A stretch of 64,000 nt of DNA, taken from NCBI GenBank assembly GCA_002011035.2, contig MTLY02000002.1:256001-320000 (forward strand), given 5' to 3'. The position numbers and the translations under genes are program-made. Origin of the DNA: Candidatus Hecatella orcuttiae. Lineage in GTDB: Archaea > Thermoproteota > Bathyarchaeia > Hecatellales > Hecatellaceae. Under the pieces are notes generated by a model. The model was given only the letters and a program-made list of their open reading frames with translations, was not told where the DNA came from and ran no database searches. This document shows positions 1-9,202 of this stretch, piece by piece; positions within the stretch are counted from its first letter, which is position 1; each line of letters opens with the position of its first letter.

Positions 1-1047
1 TTGGAAAACTCATCGGGAAGGAGCGAGGGAGACGGCTATAGGGCTGTTAGGGAAAAGATGGAGGAGATACAAAGTTGGCTTGAGGAAATTCAAAGCCATT
101 CCCGAGCTTCCATGGTGAAAATGAAGGAATTGAATTCGAAAATCTCACTCCTCCAAAAAAGTCTGAGTTCCCTAGAACAGGAGTTAGACAGTCTTCAGGA
201 AATGTACGTGGAGAAAAGGGTTAGGGAGGCTTTGCTGAATTATCAGGGGGAGGAATTAGAAGACCAGCTCCGGCAGTTGGGAAGAGAAGAGGACAGGCTT
301 AAAGAGGAACTGGAGACTTTAGCCTCCCAAGCTAGGGAAATCGGGCCTAGGGTGGAAACCCACCGGCTTCCCCAAGAAATCAGCGACGAAATCAAAACTC
401 TAACAGCCCACTTGGTCTCCTTGGCGGATGTTAATCCGGAGACTGAAAAAATCTACCGCAAATATCAGCGGGTATACGAAGAGCTGAAGCAGAAATCTGA
501 AGTATTAGCGGAAAACAGGGCTAAGATGCTGGAGGAAGTGGATGTCCGGAAAAAGGCTTGGAGAAAAGTTTTGGAAAACTTCCTCGCCGAGCTTAACCAA
601 ACCTACAGGCAGTTCCTCTCCACCATAGGCGCCCTTGGAAACGTGAAACTGGTCAACGCAGAGGATGTGGAAACCGCAGGCCTAGAGCTCTACGTAGGCT
701 TCCACGGCACAGCTCCTACCCCCTTAGACGCCTACACCCAGAGCGGAGGAGAACGGACAACAGCCATCATGGCCTTTCTGCTCGCCCTCCAAAGATACGT
801 GAAGTCTCCTATTAGGGCGGTGGATGAGTTTGATATACACATGGACCCTAGAAATAGGGAGACAGTATCGAAGCTGATAGCGCAGACCGTCGGCGAACAA
901 GAGCAAGCGCAGTATATAATTATAACGCCCTGGCATCTTCCAATCTTTGACCAAGAAGCTCACCTCATCATCGTTCAGAATGTGGCAGGAAGGTCTGAAG
1001 TTAAAACGGTGAACAGCTCTGAAGCCGGCTCGAAGGTCCAAGGATAA
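1..1047 (+). CDS. SMC-family ATPase, C-terminal part (5' truncated by window); SMC5/6-like head motifs
   Basis: Long heptad coiled coil followed by signature QSGGER and Walker B/D-loop PIRAVDEFDIHMDPRNR. Confidence 0.9.
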   Translation: MENSSGRSEGDGYRAVREKMEEIQSWLEEIQSHSRASMVKMKELNSKISLLQKSLSSLEQELDSLQEMYVEKRVREALLNYQGEELEDQLRQLGREEDRLKEELETLASQAREIGPRVETHRLPQEISDEIKTLTAHLVSLADVNPETEKIYRKYQRVYEELKQKSEVLAENRAKMLEEVDVRKKAWRKVLENFLAELNQTYRQFLSTIGALGNVKLVNAEDVETAGLELYVGFHGTAPTPLDAYTQSGGERTTAIMAFLLALQRYVKSPIRAVDEFDIHMDPRNRETVSKLIAQTVGEQEQAQYIIITPWHLPIFDQEAHLIIVQNVAGRSEVKTVNSSEAGSKVQG

Positions 1048-1825
1048 CTTAGAACACCTCCTCAGGGTGATTTCCCTCTGTGAAACGGTAGAGCGGAGGG
1101 GGATCAACCCTTTTGAGGTTGAGGTTAAAGAAGCCCTGAACTCCCTCCGACGGCTTCTCGCAAGTTGGAAGTCCTTCGAAGAGCTCTGCCTAGACGCCCA
1201 AGCCATCAACAACCTCTCCAAGGTCGTTAGGCTTCAAGGGGACTGGATTAAACGCCGATCAGCCCTCCACGGAGTGGACCCTGAGACCGTTGAAGCCCGG
1301 ATAGCGAAGCTGAAGCCCGAAGAGCTAGCCGGAGTCTTCTTAGGAGCATGGCGTCCGCTTGTTAGGCTGGAAAAGCTTTCCTTAGAAAGGTTGAAGGAAG
1401 CCTTCTGCTACTGGAAGGGGCTTCCTCCTCGAGGAGAACGTGGAGAAGATTTTCTCCTCCCTTCCTTGGAGGTTTCTACTTCCATGGATGAGGTTCTGAA
1501 AATGGTTTGGGAAGGGGAAGACTTTGATCAAACTCTTAGGAACTTCTGGGAGGAACTTCGCCTCAAGGCAAAGGAGGGGGGAGGTAAAATCTCCTACTGG
1601 AAGTTTGTGGCGGATGAAAGCTTCGCAAAGCTGGTGGTGAGAGCCTACCTGACCAGCTTTCTGCTCACCTACGGCTACGCCCGGCTGGAGGTGGAACCCT
1701 TAGAGGGGGACATAACCCTTATCCCTAACCCCGAACCGGTCACTAAGAAAAACGTCGGCTCATCGGTGGCCATATCTCTAGACCGTTTTCTCTGGGAAAA
1801 ACTGCGGGAGGAAAAGACATCGTGA
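1019..1825 (+). CDS. Kleisin (ScpA-like) subunit; probable CTG start at 1019 (ORF track start 1067)
   Basis: N-terminal LEHLLRVI...INPFEVEV resembles ScpA LDLLLxLI...IDPWDIDI; C-terminal SYWKFV...FLLTYGYARLEVEPLEGDI resembles the ScpA C-terminal winged helix; directly follows SMC. Confidence 0.75.
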   Translation: MKPARRSKDNLEHLLRVISLCETVERRGINPFEVEVKEALNSLRRLLASWKSFEELCLDAQAINNLSKVVRLQGDWIKRRSALHGVDPETVEARIAKLKPEELAGVFLGAWRPLVRLEKLSLERLKEAFCYWKGLPPRGERGEDFLLPSLEVSTSMDEVLKMVWEGEDFDQTLRNFWEELRLKAKEGGGKISYWKFVADESFAKLVVRAYLTSFLLTYGYARLEVEPLEGDITLIPNPEPVTKKNVGSSVAISLDRFLWEKLREEKTS

Positions 1826-2433
1826 CTGAGGAAGAAACCGCCGCGGCCTACGCCAGGAAGCTGAAAAGAGCAGCTCAAATGCTGTTTTTCCAGAGACACC
1901 GTGTTCCGGGCCTCCGAGGCTGGGAGCTGAGGAAATCCCTAGGCAAAGATTACATGAAAGTGGTGGAGCTTCTCAACTTCGAACTAGGGAAACTGGGCCT
2001 TCAGGTTAAAGTCATCCCGGAAACCAGTGAAACCGAGCGTCCGGAGAGGCTTACCGATGAGGAACTGGATAGGGCGAGGTTTTACATCACGCTGGGAGGC
2101 TCGCCTACGGCTACGGAAACCCAGCTGGCAGGATGGAGGATCGATGACCTAGCGGTGCTCGCGGCCTCCTTGGCCTACATCTTGGCAAGACAGGGGAAGG
2201 CTCCGAAAAGCGAGGTGGAGAAGCTTTTGAAGGAGAAGCTTCCCGAATGGAGGGTTAACCTCAGCCTCGACCGCTTCATCAAGATGAAATACTTGTCGTT
2301 GGATGAGAATGGGGTTCTCCGCTTAGACTGGAGGACGAGGGCGGAGGTGGATTTGAAAACATTGTTGGAGTTGCTTCTTACAGAGGAAACAACCTCGGCC
2401 TCCTCGGAGGGAAAAAGCCCTTCAACATCCTAA
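1822..2433 (+). CDS. Putative KITE (tandem winged-helix) subunit, Nse1/Nse3-like
   Basis: About 200 aa, two WH-sized halves, C-terminal LDRFIKMKYLSLDENGVLRLDWRTRAEV; overlaps kleisin stop by 4 nt. Confidence 0.6.
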   Translation: MTEEETAAAYARKLKRAAQMLFFQRHRVPGLRGWELRKSLGKDYMKVVELLNFELGKLGLQVKVIPETSETERPERLTDEELDRARFYITLGGSPTATETQLAGWRIDDLAVLAASLAYILARQGKAPKSEVEKLLKEKLPEWRVNLSLDRFIKMKYLSLDENGVLRLDWRTRAEVDLKTLLELLLTEETTSASSEGKSPSTS

Positions 2434-2776: not shown

Positions 2777-3661
2777 CTAGTTTCCTCTCCGCCAGTCAGC
2801 GGAGCTAGTCCGTCTCAGAATGGCTATGGGGCAATGTTCTGTTTCTTTGAGCATCTTCCACGTCACTTCCGTCATGGCCACGTTGAACTTTTCCGCCACA
2901 TCCCACATGGTTTTACCTGCCCCATAGCCGAGGATGTGATGGGAGGCTTCGGCCAAGTTCAAGGCTTCTTCCACTGTTAAAGCCTCCGGAGGATACACGG
3001 CTTTAGGAGTTGAACGGGGTTTAAGCTTAAACATCCTTCCAAAAAGGTAGTAGAGGAAGCCTCCTCCAGAACGAATGCCACTCACACCAGTAGGTGAAGG
3101 GGATAAGTGAAGCCTTCGAAAAGAATAGGTTTTATCCGAATCCACGATGAGAACGATGACGGATTTTTTCAGCCTCTGCTGGAAGGCAGCATAAATTTTT
3201 TCTGCCACATCCCCAGGTCTGGGGAGAGGAAGGCTGACGTAGGAATAGGGAAGGTTGGTGGCGTCGACGCCTCCCTCTGAGCTGAATCTTAAAGCTTGAA
3301 GCAAGCCGGTTTTCTCCAACACTAGCTGCTTATGCCTAGCTCCTTCAACTTGGGGGTAGTCTCTCAGCCGGAGCATAGTCAGAGGCTTCAGCCGGCATAG
3401 GAAACCCAGCAGATATCCCCAGCAAAGCCTCATCCACACTCGGACGAGAAACTGAGAGGCGAAGCCGGGTTCAACTTTGCTTTCGTCGACAATGTTCCCT
3501 TGGGCGATGGAGAGAGCTTTCTCTGAAACAGCTAAAATGTCCCCGTTTCTAACCAGCTTCCCCGCGGTTCGAAGAATTTCTTCCAAGTAGTTGGTTCCCG
3601 GAAGCCAGTAAGCTGTTCTAATTCTCTTAACCTTCAGCCCGGGAATTTTCGGAGGAGACAT
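2777..3661 (-). CDS. CofE-like (F420-0:gamma-glutamyl ligase family) protein
   Basis: GDILAVSEKALSIAQG, GGVDATN and VLIVDSD motifs. Confidence 0.75.
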   Translation of the reverse strand: MSPPKIPGLKVKRIRTAYWLPGTNYLEEILRTAGKLVRNGDILAVSEKALSIAQGNIVDESKVEPGFASQFLVRVWMRLCWGYLLGFLCRLKPLTMLRLRDYPQVEGARHKQLVLEKTGLLQALRFSSEGGVDATNLPYSYVSLPLPRPGDVAEKIYAAFQQRLKKSVIVLIVDSDKTYSFRRLHLSPSPTGVSGIRSGGGFLYYLFGRMFKLKPRSTPKAVYPPEALTVEEALNLAEASHHILGYGAGKTMWDVAEKFNVAMTEVTWKMLKETEHCPIAILRRTSSADWRRGN

Positions 3662-3759: not shown

Positions 3760-5142
3760 ATGGAAGACATCCTTCTTTACGCTGTTCACGTGGGAGAAAA
3801 ACTCGGCGCCGACTTCGTGGAGGTCCGAGGCCAAGAACTCCATAAGACATCGGTAACCACTAAAGACGGAAAACCGGAGCATATCAGAGAAGGCTTCGAA
3901 GAAGGCTTAGGCATAAGAGTGCTAGCCCGTGGGGCTTGGGGTTTCCTATCCCTAAGAAAAACAGACCGGGAATCAATAAGGGAAGCGGCGGAGAAAGCCT
4001 ACAAGTTGGCCCTGACCTCCAGCCGGGAGATTAAAGAGCCTGTGAAGTTGGCGGAGGTCAAGCCTGTGCGGGATAGGGTGGTTAAGAAGCCTAAACTTTC
4101 CCCCACCGATGTCTCCTTGGAGCAAAAGGCGGAACTGGCTCTAAGCATCGACAGGGACATTTTCAGCCTAGTTCCTCAGGTGAAAAGCTGCACTGTTAAT
4201 TACCTCGACGTGGTGGGCGTGAACTACTATTTTTCCAGTGAAGGAGCCCGCATCCAACAGGACAGCCTCCACGTTTGGCTGAGAGTTTACGCCACGGCGT
4301 CTGAGGGGGAGGTATTCGCCTCCGCCAGTGAGGAGGTGGGTTCCACCAAGGGTTTTGAAACCTTTGAAAGACAGGTCCTAGAAAAAGTGAGCAGCAGGGT
4401 CTCCCGGCGGATCAGGGAGCAGTTGAAGGCGGAACTGCCCAAAGGCGGAGTCTACCCGGCTGTCTTAGGCTCCAACGTGGTAGGGGTCTTCATCCACGAA
4501 GCCTTCGGCCACCTAGCGGAAGCAGACCTAGCGTTAGCCGGCTCGGTGACATTAGACAAAATGGGAAAGAGAATAGCCTCGGAGGCAACGAGCATCTTCG
4601 ACGATGGAACGCTGCCTGGAGCCTTCGGTAGCTTCCGCTACGACGACGAAGGTGTTCCAGCTCAGCGAACCCCGTTGGTGGAGAAAGGCGTGGTAGTGGG
4701 GCTGATGCATTCCCGGGAAACAGCAGGCCGGCTGGGTGTTCAGCCTACTGGAAACGCTAGAGCGGAAAGTTTCAGGTTTACACCAATAATCCGTATGAGA
4801 AACACCTATTTGGCTCCAGGAGATCAGAGCTTAGAAGAGCTTCTAGAGCCCATTCGTTTCGGCTACTATCTGAAAACCCTCAGAGGAGGACAAGCCAACT
4901 TAGACGGCACTTTTCAGGTGGGCATTCAGGAAGGCTACAAGGTTATCAGGGGAGAAGTCTGCGAGCCGGTGAGAAATCTTTCCATGAGCGGGCACACTCT
5001 TCAGACACTCCTGAAGATAGAAGCTGTAGGGAAGGATTTCCAACTCTGGCCGGGACGGTGTGGAAAAGGCCAGACTGCCTTCATCTGCGACGGAGGCCCT
5101 TCCATCAGAGTAGGGGAGGCTCAGCTGGGAGGGAGAGGATAA
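3760..5142 (+). CDS. tldD: TldD metalloprotease
   Basis: GLGIRV, HEAFGH (HExxxH), DDEG, RMRNTY, C-terminal CGKG. Confidence 0.92.
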   Translation: MEDILLYAVHVGEKLGADFVEVRGQELHKTSVTTKDGKPEHIREGFEEGLGIRVLARGAWGFLSLRKTDRESIREAAEKAYKLALTSSREIKEPVKLAEVKPVRDRVVKKPKLSPTDVSLEQKAELALSIDRDIFSLVPQVKSCTVNYLDVVGVNYYFSSEGARIQQDSLHVWLRVYATASEGEVFASASEEVGSTKGFETFERQVLEKVSSRVSRRIREQLKAELPKGGVYPAVLGSNVVGVFIHEAFGHLAEADLALAGSVTLDKMGKRIASEATSIFDDGTLPGAFGSFRYDDEGVPAQRTPLVEKGVVVGLMHSRETAGRLGVQPTGNARAESFRFTPIIRMRNTYLAPGDQSLEELLEPIRFGYYLKTLRGGQANLDGTFQVGIQEGYKVIRGEVCEPVRNLSMSGHTLQTLLKIEAVGKDFQLWPGRCGKGQTAFICDGGPSIRVGEAQLGGRG

Positions 5143-5145
5143 GCC

Positions 5146-6513
5146 GTGAACCTTCTAGCCTACGGGGAGAAAGCTGTTCGCAGAGCTCTAGCCTCAGGGG
5201 CTCAGGAAACGGAAGCCTTTCTGGCTAAGGGTCGGTGTTTCGTGGTGGAAATAGAGCGAGGTCAGATCGCTAGGAGCTCCAGTATGGTGGATGAAGGCCT
5301 AGGTGTGAGGGCGGTAATAGGTAAAGCTTGGGGTTTCGCCTACACCAACAAGCTGACCGACGAGGAGGTGGAAAAAGCCGCCTTAGCGGCCCTGAGAGCG
5401 GCGAGGGCAGGAAAACCTGATGAGGCATGGAAAGGGTTCCCGGCTTCCCGAAAACTTCCAAAAGCGAAGGGCACCTATGACGAGGAAGTAGCCGGCCTCC
5501 CCGCGGAAGAAGCAGTGAACCTGGCTTCTAAAATGTTGAGGACGGCTCAAAGCTTTGACGGCAGAGTCTTGGCTGTCGAGGGATCGGTAGGCGTCTCCCT
5601 GGTGGAGAAGGCGGTGGTAAACTCGTTGGGGGTTCATGCCTGCGACAGAGGAACCCGGACTGAATGCTTTCTGGGGGCCATAGCCAAAGAGGTGGGGGAA
5701 ACTACTCCCCTATGCTTCGAATTCGACGCTCACTGTTCTCTTCGAATCAACCCGGAAAAGGTGGGAGAAGAGGCAGCGAGGTTGGCTGTTTCCGCCCTCG
5801 GAGCGGAAGACCTTGAAACCGGCAGCTACACCGTGGTCCTCGGCCAGTCTGCCTTGCTGGGGATTTTTTACCACAGTCTTATCCCCTCCCTTAAGGCTGA
5901 CAACGTTCAGCGGGGTAAATCCAAGCTGAAAGGGAAAATCGGAGTGAACATCGCCTCGGAGCTTCTAACCATTCACGACGACGGCCTCCGGGAAGGGGGC
6001 CTTCACACTTGGAGTTTCGACGACGAAGGTCACCCAAGCCAGAGGACGACTCTCATAGAAAAGGGCGTGTTGAAAGGCTACCTCTACGACAGCTACACGG
6101 CTGGCAAGGAGGGTGTGGAGAGCACGGGTAACGCCTGGCGGAGCCATCCGGCCCCCTACGCTTGGACTCCCATCATCGAGGCCACAAACTTCACCGTCAC
6201 CCCGTCCACCATTTCGCCTGAGAGGCTTTTGTCCGAGGTGAAGAAGGGAGTTTTCATTCCCTATGTTCAAGGCGCCCACAGCAGCAATCCTGAGAGCGGA
6301 GAGTTCTCGGTGGTGGCTGCACCTGCGTGGAAGATTGAAGAAGGCCAAGTAGGCCGACCGTTGAAGGGAGTGATGCTGACTGGAACCATTTATGAACTTC
6401 TCAGAAATATTTCAGGGTTGGCGAGCAACCTCAGACAGCTGGCCCTCTTGGTGGCGCCATGGATTAGAATCGAAGATGCGAGGCTGGTGGGCCGGAGGGG
6501 AGAGGAAGGTTAA
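5146..6513 (+). CDS. tldE: PmbA/TldE partner subunit
   Basis: GLGVRA, FDDEG, STGNA, SGEFS motifs; no HExxH; follows tldD. Confidence 0.9.
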   Translation: MNLLAYGEKAVRRALASGAQETEAFLAKGRCFVVEIERGQIARSSSMVDEGLGVRAVIGKAWGFAYTNKLTDEEVEKAALAALRAARAGKPDEAWKGFPASRKLPKAKGTYDEEVAGLPAEEAVNLASKMLRTAQSFDGRVLAVEGSVGVSLVEKAVVNSLGVHACDRGTRTECFLGAIAKEVGETTPLCFEFDAHCSLRINPEKVGEEAARLAVSALGAEDLETGSYTVVLGQSALLGIFYHSLIPSLKADNVQRGKSKLKGKIGVNIASELLTIHDDGLREGGLHTWSFDDEGHPSQRTTLIEKGVLKGYLYDSYTAGKEGVESTGNAWRSHPAPYAWTPIIEATNFTVTPSTISPERLLSEVKKGVFIPYVQGAHSSNPESGEFSVVAAPAWKIEEGQVGRPLKGVMLTGTIYELLRNISGLASNLRQLALLVAPWIRIEDARLVGRRGEEG

Positions 6514-6932
6514 AGCCTCCGCCTCAGCCTGAAAAGAGAGGCTGGAACACCGAGGATAACCGCGGCTAGGATGAAAGACTGCCAAGATGCTAGGGAGTAA
6601 AAGGCTAAGACTAGGGAGAAGTAGATGGTTAAGATAAGGGTTAACATACCGTAGAGAGCAAACTGGTGGCTTCTGAAATAAAGCTTCCTCTTCTCCTCTT
6701 GGGTGATGGGGAAACTGCGGGAGTGATGGTAGACGGGAGGTAGGAGGAAAATCAGGACAGAGATGGCGGCAAAGGAGAGGGCTAAGATGGTTAAAAACAC
6801 CTGCACTGAGGCTTCTTCTCCCCCTTTGAAAACGGCTACGTTGAGGAGAAATCCGAAGAGAATCCCCGACACAGCCACCAGAAGGCGGAATTCCCCGAGG
6901 ATGTCCCCTACATCTATGGCGTAGTCGCTCAA
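6510..6932 (-). CDS. Small integral membrane protein (about 4 TM, DUF6328-like)
   Basis: LGEFRLLVAVSGILFGFLL and PPVYHH motifs; hydrophobic segments. Confidence 0.6.
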   Translation of the reverse strand: MSDYAIDVGDILGEFRLLVAVSGILFGFLLNVAVFKGGEEASVQVFLTILALSFAAISVLIFLLPPVYHHSRSFPITQEEKRKLYFRSHQFALYGMLTLILTIYFSLVLAFYSLASWQSFILAAVILGVPASLFRLRRRL

Positions 6933-7024
6933 AGAGTATCCCCCTAGACTAAGCGTCGGCGGTCTTTAAAACTTTACAGACTCTGGTCTAAGGAGACTGG
7001 ACCTCAAAAAAATGGAGGGTTTTG

Positions 7025-7336
7025 TTACTTTACGGGGATTTTTCTTCCGCGAAGAGGCTGCTTCAACGGCACTGTAATCTTGAGAAGCCCACTTTCATAG
7101 GTGGCTTCAGCTTTATCCACATCTACGGGATGAGCGAGATAGTAGCATCCGGAATATTCTAGGTCCTCTCTGACAGCTCTGACGCAGAAAGTTTGTTCTC
7201 CAAGCTCCAATTCAATATCTTTCTTCTCAACCCCAGGGAATTCCACTTCCACGTAGTATCTTTCCCGGTCATGGTCAACACATGTAGAAGGAGCCACGGT
7301 AACCTTGGTTTTTTCTACCATAAAAATTTCCTCCAC
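7025..7336 (-). CDS. Small heat shock protein (Hsp20/alpha-crystallin)
   Basis: VEFPGVEKKDIEL and AEATYESGLLKITVP, C-terminal IPV motif. Confidence 0.88.
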   Translation of the reverse strand: MEEIFMVEKTKVTVAPSTCVDHDRERYYVEVEFPGVEKKDIELELGEQTFCVRAVREDLEYSGCYYLAHPVDVDKAEATYESGLLKITVPLKQPLRGRKIPVK

Positions 7337-7388
7337 TATGAAGAAAGAGACCGCTGAAAAATAAGCGTTTCGTGTTGCAAATGTAAAG

Positions 7389-7856
7389 TCACCGGTGTAA
7401 CCTAGGCTTCAACCGCCTTCCTAAAAAGCCGATGTAAACTATGGAAAAACCAACAAAGAGGACTACGGCCACTTTCAAAGCCAGAGAGACAGCGGTCAAG
7501 GAAAGCAATGCCACTGCCACACCTTCTAAGAAGCCTGTGGAAACTCTCCATCGGTTGGTTCCTTTCCTGAAACCCCAAGTTTGGGTTAACCAGTCGAAAG
7601 CAGCTGGGAAAAGAAGTAAGATGCAGAAGAAGACTTGATAAGGAAAAGAGAGGCCGTGGAATAGTGGAACTTCATAGAGAGCCGTCGCAGCAATTAAAGA
7701 GGAAAAGCCCATATAGACCCCCAAGCAGCGAGCGCAGATATGGATGTCCTTGCCTCCCAGCCTTAGGGTCACCCAGTGTCTGTGGGATAACAAGCTTTCC
7801 CAGTTCAAAACCTTCACCCACAAGCTTCCGTTTGGCTTTTTCCGCAATAGGGGCAC
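7389..7856 (-). CDS. DUF2085-family membrane protein
   Basis: ICARCLGVYMG and DWLTQ...TNRWRVSTG motifs. Confidence 0.8.
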   Translation of the reverse strand: MPLLRKKPNGSLWVKVLNWESLLSHRHWVTLRLGGKDIHICARCLGVYMGFSSLIAATALYEVPLFHGLSFPYQVFFCILLLFPAAFDWLTQTWGFRKGTNRWRVSTGFLEGVAVALLSLTAVSLALKVAVVLFVGFSIVYIGFLGRRLKPRLHR

Positions 7857-8359
7857 AGCTGATAGTCAGTCATGATAGGTTTACCGCAGGAGGAACACGG
7901 TTTCCCAACCGCGGGCACTTGGATGGGAAAGTTTGCCTTGAAATTACGCATGAGAGCCGCAACGCCGGAGCTGTAGGTGGTCTTTACCGAGGCGCCGCCC
8001 CCTTTCACTTCCGTTAGCTCGAAGGTAGCCTCCCCTTGACCGCCCACTCTAACCTTATAAAGTCTTGGGGGAATGGATTCCAAGACTTCGAATTTCGGCG
8101 AGGCCTTTCCTCCTAAGAAGAAACTGCGAGTGCTGGGCTGCGCTCCTTGGATTTCCCATTCCCTTGTTTTCTTGACGATGGCATCGTAGGCTTCTTGCAA
8201 AGTATAAGGAGTAAACCACACGTCGGTTATTTGAGGCCCTCTCTGAGCGGCTCCTCGAGACTGCATCAGCATCATCATAACGCAGCATAGAAGTAATGGT
8301 AGAAACAGGAGAAAACTGGAATACTCTGCCAAAGGTATAACCTTCATAAAGTAGTCCAC
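7814..8359 (-). CDS. Membrane-anchored protein with C-terminal zinc ribbon
   Basis: N-terminal hydrophobic helix; CSSCG...CPYCG. Confidence 0.7.
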   Translation of the reverse strand: MDYFMKVIPLAEYSSFLLFLPLLLCCVMMMLMQSRGAAQRGPQITDVWFTPYTLQEAYDAIVKKTREWEIQGAQPSTRSFFLGGKASPKFEVLESIPPRLYKVRVGGQGEATFELTEVKGGGASVKTTYSSGVAALMRNFKANFPIQVPAVGKPCSSCGKPIMTDYQLCPYCGKSQTEACG

Positions 8360-8518
8360 CCTAAGCTTAAATAAGTTTCTGATCAGAAAGAGAAGCTTAA
8401 CCTAGCTATCCTTTATCTTCCCTTAAAAAAAGGTCTACTCAGCCGTTTCACGCAAACTCAAATACGTCCTAGTCCTAAAACTCTATTAGGAAATCCCGCT
8501 CAGACCCGCTGGTGCATC

Positions 8519-9202
8519 ATGGTGAAGTTGAAGCCTGAAGAGGAAAGAAGACGGCTGGTAGAAGCACTCCAAGCCTATGGAGCCCTTCGCAGCCCTAAGG
8601 TTATCAGAGCTATGCTCAAGGTTCCGAGAGAGATGTTCGTTTTGGAAAGCATGAAAGACAGAGCCTACGATGATACACCCCTGCCCATCCTATCAGGCCA
8701 GACCATATCAGCCCCCCACATGGTGGCCATGATGAGTGAACTTCTGGAATTGGAGGCGGGCCACAGAGTTTTAGAGGTGGGAGCGGGAAGCGGATACCAC
8801 GCTGCCGTAGTAGCTGAGATTATAGCCCCGGAGGAAGCTGAAAACAAAGGCCACGTCTACACCGTGGAGATCCTTCCTGAACTGGTTAGGTTTGCGTCGG
8901 AAAACTTGGAGAAAACTTCCTACGCTAAGGTTGTAACGGTTATCCAAGGCGATGGCTCCCGCGGATTACCCAGTCACGCTCCCTTCGACCGCATCTTCGT
9001 CACAGCCTCAGCGCCCTCTGTGCCCCCGCCCTTGGTGGAGCAACTTAAACCAGGAGGCATTCTTGTGATCCCAGTGGGCGGCGCCTATATATCTCAAACC
9101 CTCCGAACGGTGAAGAAAAGGCAGGATGGACAGGTTGAATCTTCCGACCTGATGGGTGTGGCCTTCGTTCCTTTGAGGGGTGAGTACGGATGGAAAAGCT
9201 AA
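8519..9202 (+). CDS. pcm: Protein-L-isoaspartate O-methyltransferase
   Basis: GQTISAPHMVA, VLEVGAGSGY, APFDRI, FVPL motifs. Confidence 0.95.
   Translation: MVKLKPEEERRRLVEALQAYGALRSPKVIRAMLKVPREMFVLESMKDRAYDDTPLPILSGQTISAPHMVAMMSELLELEAGHRVLEVGAGSGYHAAVVAEIIAPEEAENKGHVYTVEILPELVRFASENLEKTSYAKVVTVIQGDGSRGLPSHAPFDRIFVTASAPSVPPPLVEQLKPGGILVIPVGGAYISQTLRTVKKRQDGQVESSDLMGVAFVPLRGEYGWKS

Follow-up and report, generated by a model that had tools for sequence, protein, structure and literature searches.

The first 2,433 nucleotides (nt) of a 64,000-nt stretch of DNA from Candidatus Hecatella orcuttiae (hereafter the window, C2:256001-320000 of a genome of 1.75 Mb on three contigs) hold an operon of three genes, which encode a short SMC ATPase, a kleisin and a kite protein. 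We conclude, with a probability of roughly 85%, that this operon encodes an archaeal SMC5/6-related SMC-kleisin-KITE complex, which is the second of its kind beside the canonical Smc-ScpAB of the same organism and probably acts as a housekeeping clamp. The operon type is already known: archaeal SMC5/6-related complexes with complete operons have been published (Yoshinaga & Inagaki 2021, PMC8665677; van Hooff et al., bioRxiv 10.1101/2024.01.07.573240). We are highly confident that the Hecatella operon is a member of this published family, and the three proteins are likely to form one complex.

The initial annotation of the window described three tightly linked genes, and same-strand open reading frames (ORFs) were found at exactly the positions it gave. 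The window begins inside the SMC gene. The C-terminal part of this gene occupies positions 1..1047 (+) as an ORF of 348 codons that is open at the 5' edge, and the upstream genome sequence places the ATG of the full gene 1025 nt 5' of window position 1 (L002:10975) and yields a full-length protein of 690 amino acids (aa). Its stop codon (TAA, 1045-1047) is followed by a spacer of 19 nt and by the GTG start, at 1067, of the kleisin gene (1067..1825, +, 252 aa). The kite gene (1822..2433, +, 203 aa) begins within the end of the kleisin gene, with the stop and start codons overlapping as GTGA at 1822-1825 and the sequence GGGAGG approximately 10 nt upstream of this overlap, and it ends with TAA at 2431-2433. 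All these junctions were read from the sequence and confirmed, and the strings quoted in the initial annotation (LDAYTQSGGERT, SPIRAVDEFDIHMDPRNR and LDRFIKMKYL) occur in the three translations.

Family affinity of the three subunits

The short SMC matches the Pfam family SMC_N (7.2e-34), and no match to SMC_hinge was found in it with Pfam. When it was scored against the NCBIfam models, the values stayed below the respective cutoffs: 208.9 bits against 729.4 for TIGR02169 (SMC_prok_A), on which the canonical Smc of the same genome reaches 690.3 bits, 143.7 against 567.35 for TIGR02168, and 42.8 against 860 for arcadin-4. A search of PDB with the single sequence returned SMC5 (2.4e-31) and SMC6 (3.3e-27) as the best matches, and archaeal Smc (1.1e-26) and Rad50 (approximately 4e-7) came behind them. 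With a profile built from 20 family members, the ten best PDB matches were all SMC6 or SMC5 (185 to 149 bits), and archaeal Smc followed at 139 bits. Since coiled-coil composition could inflate the scores of full-length proteins, we also ran profiles of the heads alone. The ten best matches of the C-head profile were again all SMC5/6 (78 to 56 bits), with archaeal Smc next (53.5 bits). The N-head profile ranked eight yeast SMC5/6 chains first (82 to 80 bits), followed by SMC2 (75 bits), human SMC6 (60 bits), archaeal Smc (58 bits) and Rad50 (39 bits). As a control, we searched with the canonical Smc of the genome and obtained 54 PDB matches at E ≤ 1e-10, none of which was SMC5/6.

The same affinity is visible in the catalytic motifs. 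The signature QSGGER, the Walker B/D-loop DEFDIHMD and the ITP motif of the short SMC align to solved SMC5/SMC6 chains. At the level of the family, the consensus tqsGGeRs / RavDefdvhmDPrnr / itPsql aligns with lSGGERS / RCLDEFDVYMDMVNR / LTPQSM of SMC6 and with TQSGGERA / RVVDEINQGMDSRNE / ITPKLL of SMC5. As judged from the sequence, the ATPase motifs of the short SMC are intact. The initial annotation had placed the SMC head nearer to SMC5/SMC6 than to condensin-type Smc on the basis of its motifs; these motifs hold in the alignments, and the PDB rankings and the head tree described below support the placement.

The second gene had been annotated as an ScpA-type kleisin. It is indeed a kleisin, but not of the ScpA type. 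Nse4_C is matched by 17 of the 24 syntenic kleisin homologues (best 5.4e-6), with the Hecatella protein at 4.2e-4, whereas Pfam finds SMC_ScpA or Rad21_Rec8 in none of the 24 family members. The kleisin family profile returned only five PDB matches at E ≤ 10: the four with E ≤ 0.001 are Nse4 (3.7e-4) and EID3 (human, 8.6e-4), and the fifth is a designed minibinder (0.13). When aligned with hhalign to the ScpA of the same genome, the kleisin reached a probability of 21% (E 0.001), over the C-terminal winged helix only.

The Hecatella kite has no Pfam or NCBIfam match. Among its 23 homologues, weak Pfam matches were obtained to MAGE in three (best 0.022) and to SMC_Nse1 in one (0.061), none of the 23 matches ScpB, and the kite profile returned just two weak and irrelevant matches among the PDB sequences. 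The AlphaFold2 (AF2) model of the kite, built on a 23-row alignment (predicted local distance difference test score, pLDDT, 79.2; predicted template modeling score 0.62), has two winged-helix domains. The 203 aa consist of these two domains only, with no RING. In a Foldseek search with this model, the five best matches (E ≤ 0.001) were all Nse1-Nse3(-Nse4) or MAGE-G1/NSE1 chains, while ScpB, JetB and MukE appeared at ranks 10, 11 and 17. VIA-align gave the same picture, with six chains of Nse1/Nse3 complexes as the best two-domain matches (Z 12.3 to 10.3, 156 to 178 residues aligned) and with JetB (Z 9.0 and 8.6) and ScpB (8.6) below them. The hhalign probability of the kite against the ScpB of the genome is 0.3%. 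The description of the third protein in the initial annotation, as a tandem winged-helix protein nearer to Nse1/Nse3 than to ScpB, therefore agrees with the model and with both structural aligners.

The search of representative proteins with the C-head profile also returned eukaryotic SMC5 proteins, named as such by their source, together with other eukaryotic proteins, and this made a tree of the heads possible. We built a head-only maximum likelihood tree of 56 rows and 293 columns (LG+C20+F+G4), rooted on the two Rad50s of the genome; rows P0221, P0235 and P0263 were left out because of poor N-head matches. The two Rad50s fall apart from all SMC rows with a branch support of 100/99. Nine canonical archaeal Smc form one clade (99/98), and the remaining 45 rows form a separate one (98/91). 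The first branch within the latter (96/81) is composed of the Asgard protein P0223 (Candidatus Freyarchaeum deiterrae) and of P0210 and P0215, two proteins of approximately 630 aa from metagenomes. The archaeal family, with 27 rows (93/83), is sister to a branch of 15 rows (99/86), and their union is supported at 100/95. In this sister branch every organism-named row is eukaryotic, and it holds all five rows named SMC5. With the caveats weighed below, the head tree independently reproduces the published placement of the family.

Genomic setting, conservation and arm architecture

A canonical Smc-ScpAB operon lies at L002 3155-8017 (C2:247155-252017), approximately 4-9 kb upstream of window position 1 and approximately 3 kb upstream of the short-SMC operon. 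It encodes Smc (1183 aa; Pfam SMC_hinge 2.8e-24), ScpA (231 aa; SMC_ScpA and Rad21_Rec8) and ScpB (215 aa; SMC_ScpB 4.1e-33). Because of its presence, the three-gene operon is the second SMC system of the organism. An SMC_N scan of the whole genome detected only four coiled-coil ATPases, namely the short SMC, the canonical Smc and the products of two Rad50-like genes.

Between the canonical operon and the short-SMC operon lie ORFs that, from their translations, we take to be MoaA-, MoaC-, MoaB- and TruA-like. The canonical operon was found near the short-SMC operon in only one other locus, L037. The two Rad50-like genes belong to two separate pairs of Mre11-like and Rad50-like genes on contig C3 (L087 352-3634 and L088 1399-5209), with products of 410 aa + 689 aa and 429 aa + 852 aa that all score under the NCBIfam equivalog cutoffs.

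A scan of species-representative genomes identified 79 loci with the short SMC, which according to their record titles come from Bathyarchaeia/Bathyarchaeota, Hecatellales, Nitrososphaeria, Methanomethylicia and Hadarchaeota. We considered as testable the 67 loci in which the C-terminus of the SMC is complete and the downstream sequence extends for 1500 nt or more. Both partner genes follow on the same strand in 62 of these 67 loci, and in 60 they abut directly, in most cases with an overlap of 4 nt. Synteny at this frequency indicates that the linkage of the three genes is beyond chance and that they form a conserved operon, as the initial annotation had proposed. In the five remaining loci the short SMC stands alone, and kleisin and kite are found together at another site of the same genome (L004, L034, L046, L072, L075 and L082-L086). 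Since the pair is kept in all five exceptions, the link between kleisin and kite is tighter than that between SMC and kleisin. The kite gene is present in 120 of the 151 sampled genomes of the class, in 77 of the 95 high-quality genomes and in 68 of the 79 genera, almost always as a single copy per genome. The operon is thus near-core in the class.

When we clustered the neighboring genes of 80 loci, no conserved fourth gene was found beside the trio. A JetD-like nuclease, for which the initial annotation had suggested looking upstream, was found neither at the Hecatella locus nor as a conserved gene at the homologous loci. Similarly, no Nse2-, Nse5- or Nse6-like gene is conserved beside the operon, a result that refers to the neighborhood of the operon and not to the whole genome, which was not searched for these genes. 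The commonest other neighbor clusters include an ORF on the opposite strand that overlaps the SMC start in 34 loci, which we took as spurious, and a block of RpoA / NusA-KH / L7Ae near the short SMC in 23 loci. A 244-aa protein with no Pfam match is conserved in 34 loci, where its gene lies 5' of the short SMC and on the other strand (for example, L007 3436-4167, - strand). None of these three clusters occurs at the Hecatella locus.

The short SMC differs from canonical SMC proteins in its arms. In the AF2 model, built on a 20-row alignment (pLDDT 82.7), it appears as a helical hairpin on a head. The modeled arm is composed of one helix (residues 187-343), a loop of 10 residues (344-353) and three return helices (354-456, 466-482 and 490-550). 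The calculated length of the 157-residue arm helix is approximately 23 nm, which is about half of the 49 nm reported for the Smc arm (PMC5526789). The short SMC of Hecatella has 364 residues between the heads and the 21 other short forms have 307-388, compared with 531 in the Asgard relative, 733-744 in three named fungal SMC5 rows and 847-883 in canonical Smc. This short length alone leaves no room for a hinge, and the aligned stretches to SMC6 skip approximately residues 490-660 of the SMC6 chain. Within the family, conservation is lowest at the apex, the length of which varies by tens of residues. A hook is likewise missing: no apex cysteine is conserved among the 20 aligned members, in which the sole invariant cysteine (C50) lies in the Walker A region, and a central CxxC occurs in only one of 120 family proteins, the long P0044. 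Almost all members (118 of the 120) are 600-700 aa long. The short SMC family is naturally short-armed, without hinge and without hook, and the hinge-less build is very likely to be real.

The Asgard protein P0223 (835 aa) carries a Pfam SMC_hinge (4.6e-11) and branches outside both the short family and the branch that contains eukaryotic SMC5. As this hinge-bearing relative lies outside the family, the hinge-less build looks derived rather than ancestral. We found no statement of a missing hinge in the literature on archaeal SMC5/6-related SMCs. Neither Yoshinaga and Inagaki nor van Hooff et al. remark on the length of approximately 650 aa or on the missing hinge in the available main text, although their supplements, and that of van Hooff et al. 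in particular, may cover it. The hinge-less architecture therefore looks under-described.

Alternative readings, proposed mechanism and known systems

The operon might instead be a fast-evolving second condensin-type Smc-ScpAB, whose likeness to SMC5/6 would stem from convergence or long-branch effects. Part of the evidence is compatible with this explanation. An approximately unbiased (AU) test does not reject the grouping of the family with canonical Smc (12.0 log-likelihood units worse, p-AU 0.237), so that the phylogenetic position beside eukaryotic SMC5 and apart from canonical Smc is recovered in the tree but not enforced by the test. Similarly, van Hooff et al. report that the monophyly of the two eukaryotic SMC clusters is not rejected in their analysis (p-AU 0.317). 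SMC_prok_A is the best NCBIfam model of the short SMC, and the C-terminal winged helix of the kleisin does align, weakly, to the ScpA of the genome. Foldseek with the whole SMC model ranks an archaeal Smc head first, in a search that does not discriminate, as Smc5/6 chains and Rad50 are also near the top.

Further points weigh against our own reading. Our tree contains no SMC1-4, no bacterial Smc and no source-named SMC6, and its sampling is biased because the eukaryotic rows were picked by similarity to the C-head of the family. The margin of the N-head over SMC2 is thin (82 versus 75 bits). The Nse4_C score of the Hecatella kleisin itself is below the Pfam cutoff (20.9 versus 26 bits). The kite resembles Nse1/Nse3 by fold only, at 14-16% identity and with Z 12.3 versus 9.0 for JetB, and has no significant sequence match. 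Finally, the hinge-less build depends on an AF2 apex with a pLDDT below 60, and below 50 at residues 347-352.

Nevertheless, we consider a divergent condensin copy improbable, as all three subunits point independently to SMC5/6 partners. The kleisin matches Nse4/EID3 and never ScpA or Rad21, and the kite is nearest to Nse1/Nse3 with two aligners and has an hhalign probability close to zero against the ScpB of the genome. The control with canonical Smc gave no SMC5/6 match, and the separation from canonical Smc and the union with the SMC5-containing branch are both well supported in the tree (98/91 and 100/95). Moreover, two published phylogenies (van Hooff et al.; PMC8665677) agree with the SMC5/6 placement.

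A different explanation accepts the kinship with SMC5/6 and concerns the role: the complex could restrain extrachromosomal DNA, such as plasmids and viruses, instead of maintaining the chromosome. Human Smc5/6 and the prokaryotic Wadjet and Lamassu systems have been described as SMC-based immunity (PMC10586767), and one may speculate that short arms would suit the sensing of small DNA circles. In PADLOC, the head of the short SMC has generic matches to mad3 (98.8 bits) and LmuB (80.4 bits). However, the match to JetC (38 bits) covers the coiled coil only, and neither the kleisin nor the kite is matched, which leaves the operon without JetA or JetB. The operon also holds no nuclease or effector, no fourth gene is conserved among the 80 loci, and the flanking genes are housekeeping ones. 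Furthermore, a near-core distribution with a nearly always single-copy kite (120 of 151 genomes) is unlike that of patchy defence islands and argues against a mobile element of this type. An extrachromosomal target is thus quite unlikely, and for the role as such we lean, with some reserve, towards housekeeping rather than defence. That the SMC is a Rad50- or ASRP/ClsN-type protein merely lying beside two unrelated small genes is hardly credible, since its similar size (690 aa), its lack of a hinge and its weak NCBIfam matches (53.5 bits to ASRP, at most 64.8 to Rad50) are set against scores far below the curated cutoffs (300 and 700-1087 bits, respectively), the absence of an apex CxxC (a zinc hook is reported for the great majority of ASRPs; PMC9389158), the two Mre11-Rad50-like pairs elsewhere in the genome, the identity of the two small genes as a kleisin and a kite that are syntenic in 62 of 67 loci, and the split of the Rad50s from the SMC rows at 100/99.

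For an SMC5/6-related complex, the solved structures of Smc5/6, Smc-ScpAB and MukBEF/JetABC offer a guide to how the three proteins may work. By analogy, two copies of the SMC would engage their heads on ATP, one kleisin would connect the two SMCs by binding one at its neck and the other at its cap, and a kite homodimer would sit on the kleisin. The assembly would then clamp double-stranded DNA atop the engaged heads. Because the arms end in a short and unconserved loop, the two SMCs are probably connected at the head/kleisin/kite end alone, or through weak contacts between their arms. With such a junction, any DNA that is entrapped would lie in the compartment formed by the kleisin, and it is doubtful that loops are extruded over long ranges in the canonical way. 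The most likely role would be housekeeping genome maintenance, that is, replication- or repair-linked clamping or bridging of DNA, which would complement the canonical condensin and the two Mre11-Rad50 pairs of the genome. The conservation of the operon, the near-core and single-copy kite, the PADLOC result and the presence of separate Mre11-Rad50 pairs together speak for a housekeeping complex that is inherited vertically rather than for a defence island or a substitute for Rad50.

Among known systems, the closest is the archaeal family itself. Yoshinaga and Inagaki defined the 'SMC5/6-related aSMC' from Crenarchaeota, Verstraetearchaeota, Thaumarchaeota, Bathyarchaeota and Korarchaeota and found 80 such proteins, 44 of which occur in organisms that also have a canonical aSMC. 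In their Figure 4D, van Hooff, Raas, Tromer and Eme show complete operons in which the kleisin is related to Nse4 and the kite resembles Nse1/3. As they already describe such operons for TACK and Asgard archaea, the novelty that the initial annotation saw in the complete operon does not stand. The published complexes share with that of Hecatella the same three subunits in one operon, a separate canonical Smc-ScpAB alongside, and the taxa Bathyarchaeota/Bathyarchaeia, Thaumarchaeota/Nitrososphaeria and Verstraetearchaeota/Methanomethylicia. In both, heads, kleisin and kite are each nearest to their SMC5/6 counterparts, and the Hecatella operon is not separable from the family.

The eukaryotic SMC5/6 holocomplex (Smc5, Smc6 and Nse1-Nse6) resembles the Hecatella trio in the motifs QSGGER, DEFD.xMD..NR and I/LTP at the H-loop, in a kleisin that matches Nse4/EID3 and in the Nse1/Nse3-like fold of the kite. 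Unlike this holocomplex, the Hecatella trio has one SMC gene, no hinge, 364 residues between the heads and a single kite without RING. With arms about half the usual length in addition, the term 'intact proto-SMC5/6' used in the initial annotation was overstated. Because there is one SMC gene, we presume a homodimer of the SMC and not a Smc5-Smc6 heterodimer. Smc-ScpAB has the same operon logic of SMC, kleisin and KITE and, presumably, the same composition of a homodimeric SMC, one kleisin and a kite dimer, whereas the Hecatella trio lacks SMC_hinge, SMC_ScpA/Rad21_Rec8 and SMC_ScpB and falls in a separate clade of the tree.

The likeness to Wadjet (JetABCD) and MukBEF/MksBEF lies in the build of kleisin and kite, and the kite model aligns with JetB and, less well, with MukE. 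In contrast to Wadjet, the Hecatella operon has no JetD/Toprim nuclease and no JetA/JetB recognized by PADLOC, is near-core and not patchy, and has heads nearest to SMC5/6. Rad50, ASRP (ClsN/Sph) and the hinge-less SMCs of actinobacteria are also coiled-coil ABC ATPases without an SMC hinge. However, ASRPs, which bear a zinc hook, form a family of their own (PMC9389158, PMC11344861), and unlike Rad50 and ASRP the Hecatella SMC has no CxxC hook and has kleisin and kite partners. The hinge-less clade reported from the ocean belongs to marine Actinobacteria, unlike the archaeal short SMC, and the word 'kleisin' is absent from the main text of that report (PMC12153180).

With a 690-aa SMC, one kleisin and one kite (approximately 1150 residues per protomer set), the operon would offer a small and clean model, and probably a tractable one, of the SMC complex that is least understood. 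It could reveal which activities of SMC5/6, such as the clamping of DNA and the regulation of the ATPase by kleisin and kite, need no hinge, no long arms and no Nse2/5/6. A further question that it poses is how an SMC can work without a domain for dimerization at the tip.

Long-armed relatives and flanking genes

Four members of the family are much longer than the rest, all with Bathyarchaeota/Bathyarchaeia as source names. P0044 has 1042 aa, P0132 has 1047, P0139 has 1028 and P0162 has 1016, with cluster sizes of 18, 8 and 2 for the last three. Each of the four carries the motif C-[DE]-[KR]-C-G-S at 0.51-0.53 of its length, which we take to resemble the zinc hook of Rad50/ASRP. Pfam detects no hinge in them; as it likewise fails to recognize the hinge of most tested eukaryotic proteins of SMC5 size, this negative result is weak by itself for long proteins. 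The middle part of P0132 has no phmmer match to the Rad50s, the Smc or the short SMC of the Hecatella genome, to the Asgard relative or to the eukaryotic SMC5 rows. In the head tree, the four long forms compose one clade (100/98) that is nested among the short forms, and this nesting suggests a secondary extension of the arms rather than an ancestral state. Flanking sequence is available for a single long-form locus (L099 3468-6644), and in this one locus no kleisin, kite or nuclease was found within 3.5 kb.

From these data, we can tentatively draw a scenario that we hold to be possible but doubtful. The widespread form of approximately 650 aa would be a natural mini clamp of SMC5/6-type head, kleisin and kite without a dimerization module at the arm tip, instead of a closed tripartite ring, and one subclade of Bathyarchaeia within this hinge-less radiation would secondarily have doubled its arms and gained a Rad50-like CxxC hook. 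If this were true, the arm-tip module of SMC5/6-type proteins would be exchangeable in evolution: the Asgard relative and eukaryotes would carry a hinge, the long forms a hook and the short forms no module at all.

Next to the long form in L099, at 6930-8549, a gamma-glutamyltranspeptidase is encoded as two ORFs in succession (228 aa and 304 aa), each corresponding to one half of the Pfam model, perhaps owing to a frameshift or to a natural division into two subunits.

In the window itself, the short-SMC operon is followed by a gene for a stand-alone AsnC/Lrp ligand-binding domain protein of 84 aa (2430-2684, -), which is convergent with the kite gene and overlaps its stop codon. A divergent gene at 2777-3661 (-) encodes an F420-0:gamma-glutamyl ligase-like protein that scores far under the NCBIfam cutoffs. 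The region 3760-6513 (+) holds two ORFs of 460 and 455 aa, which we judge from their translations to be a TldD/PmbA-type pair.

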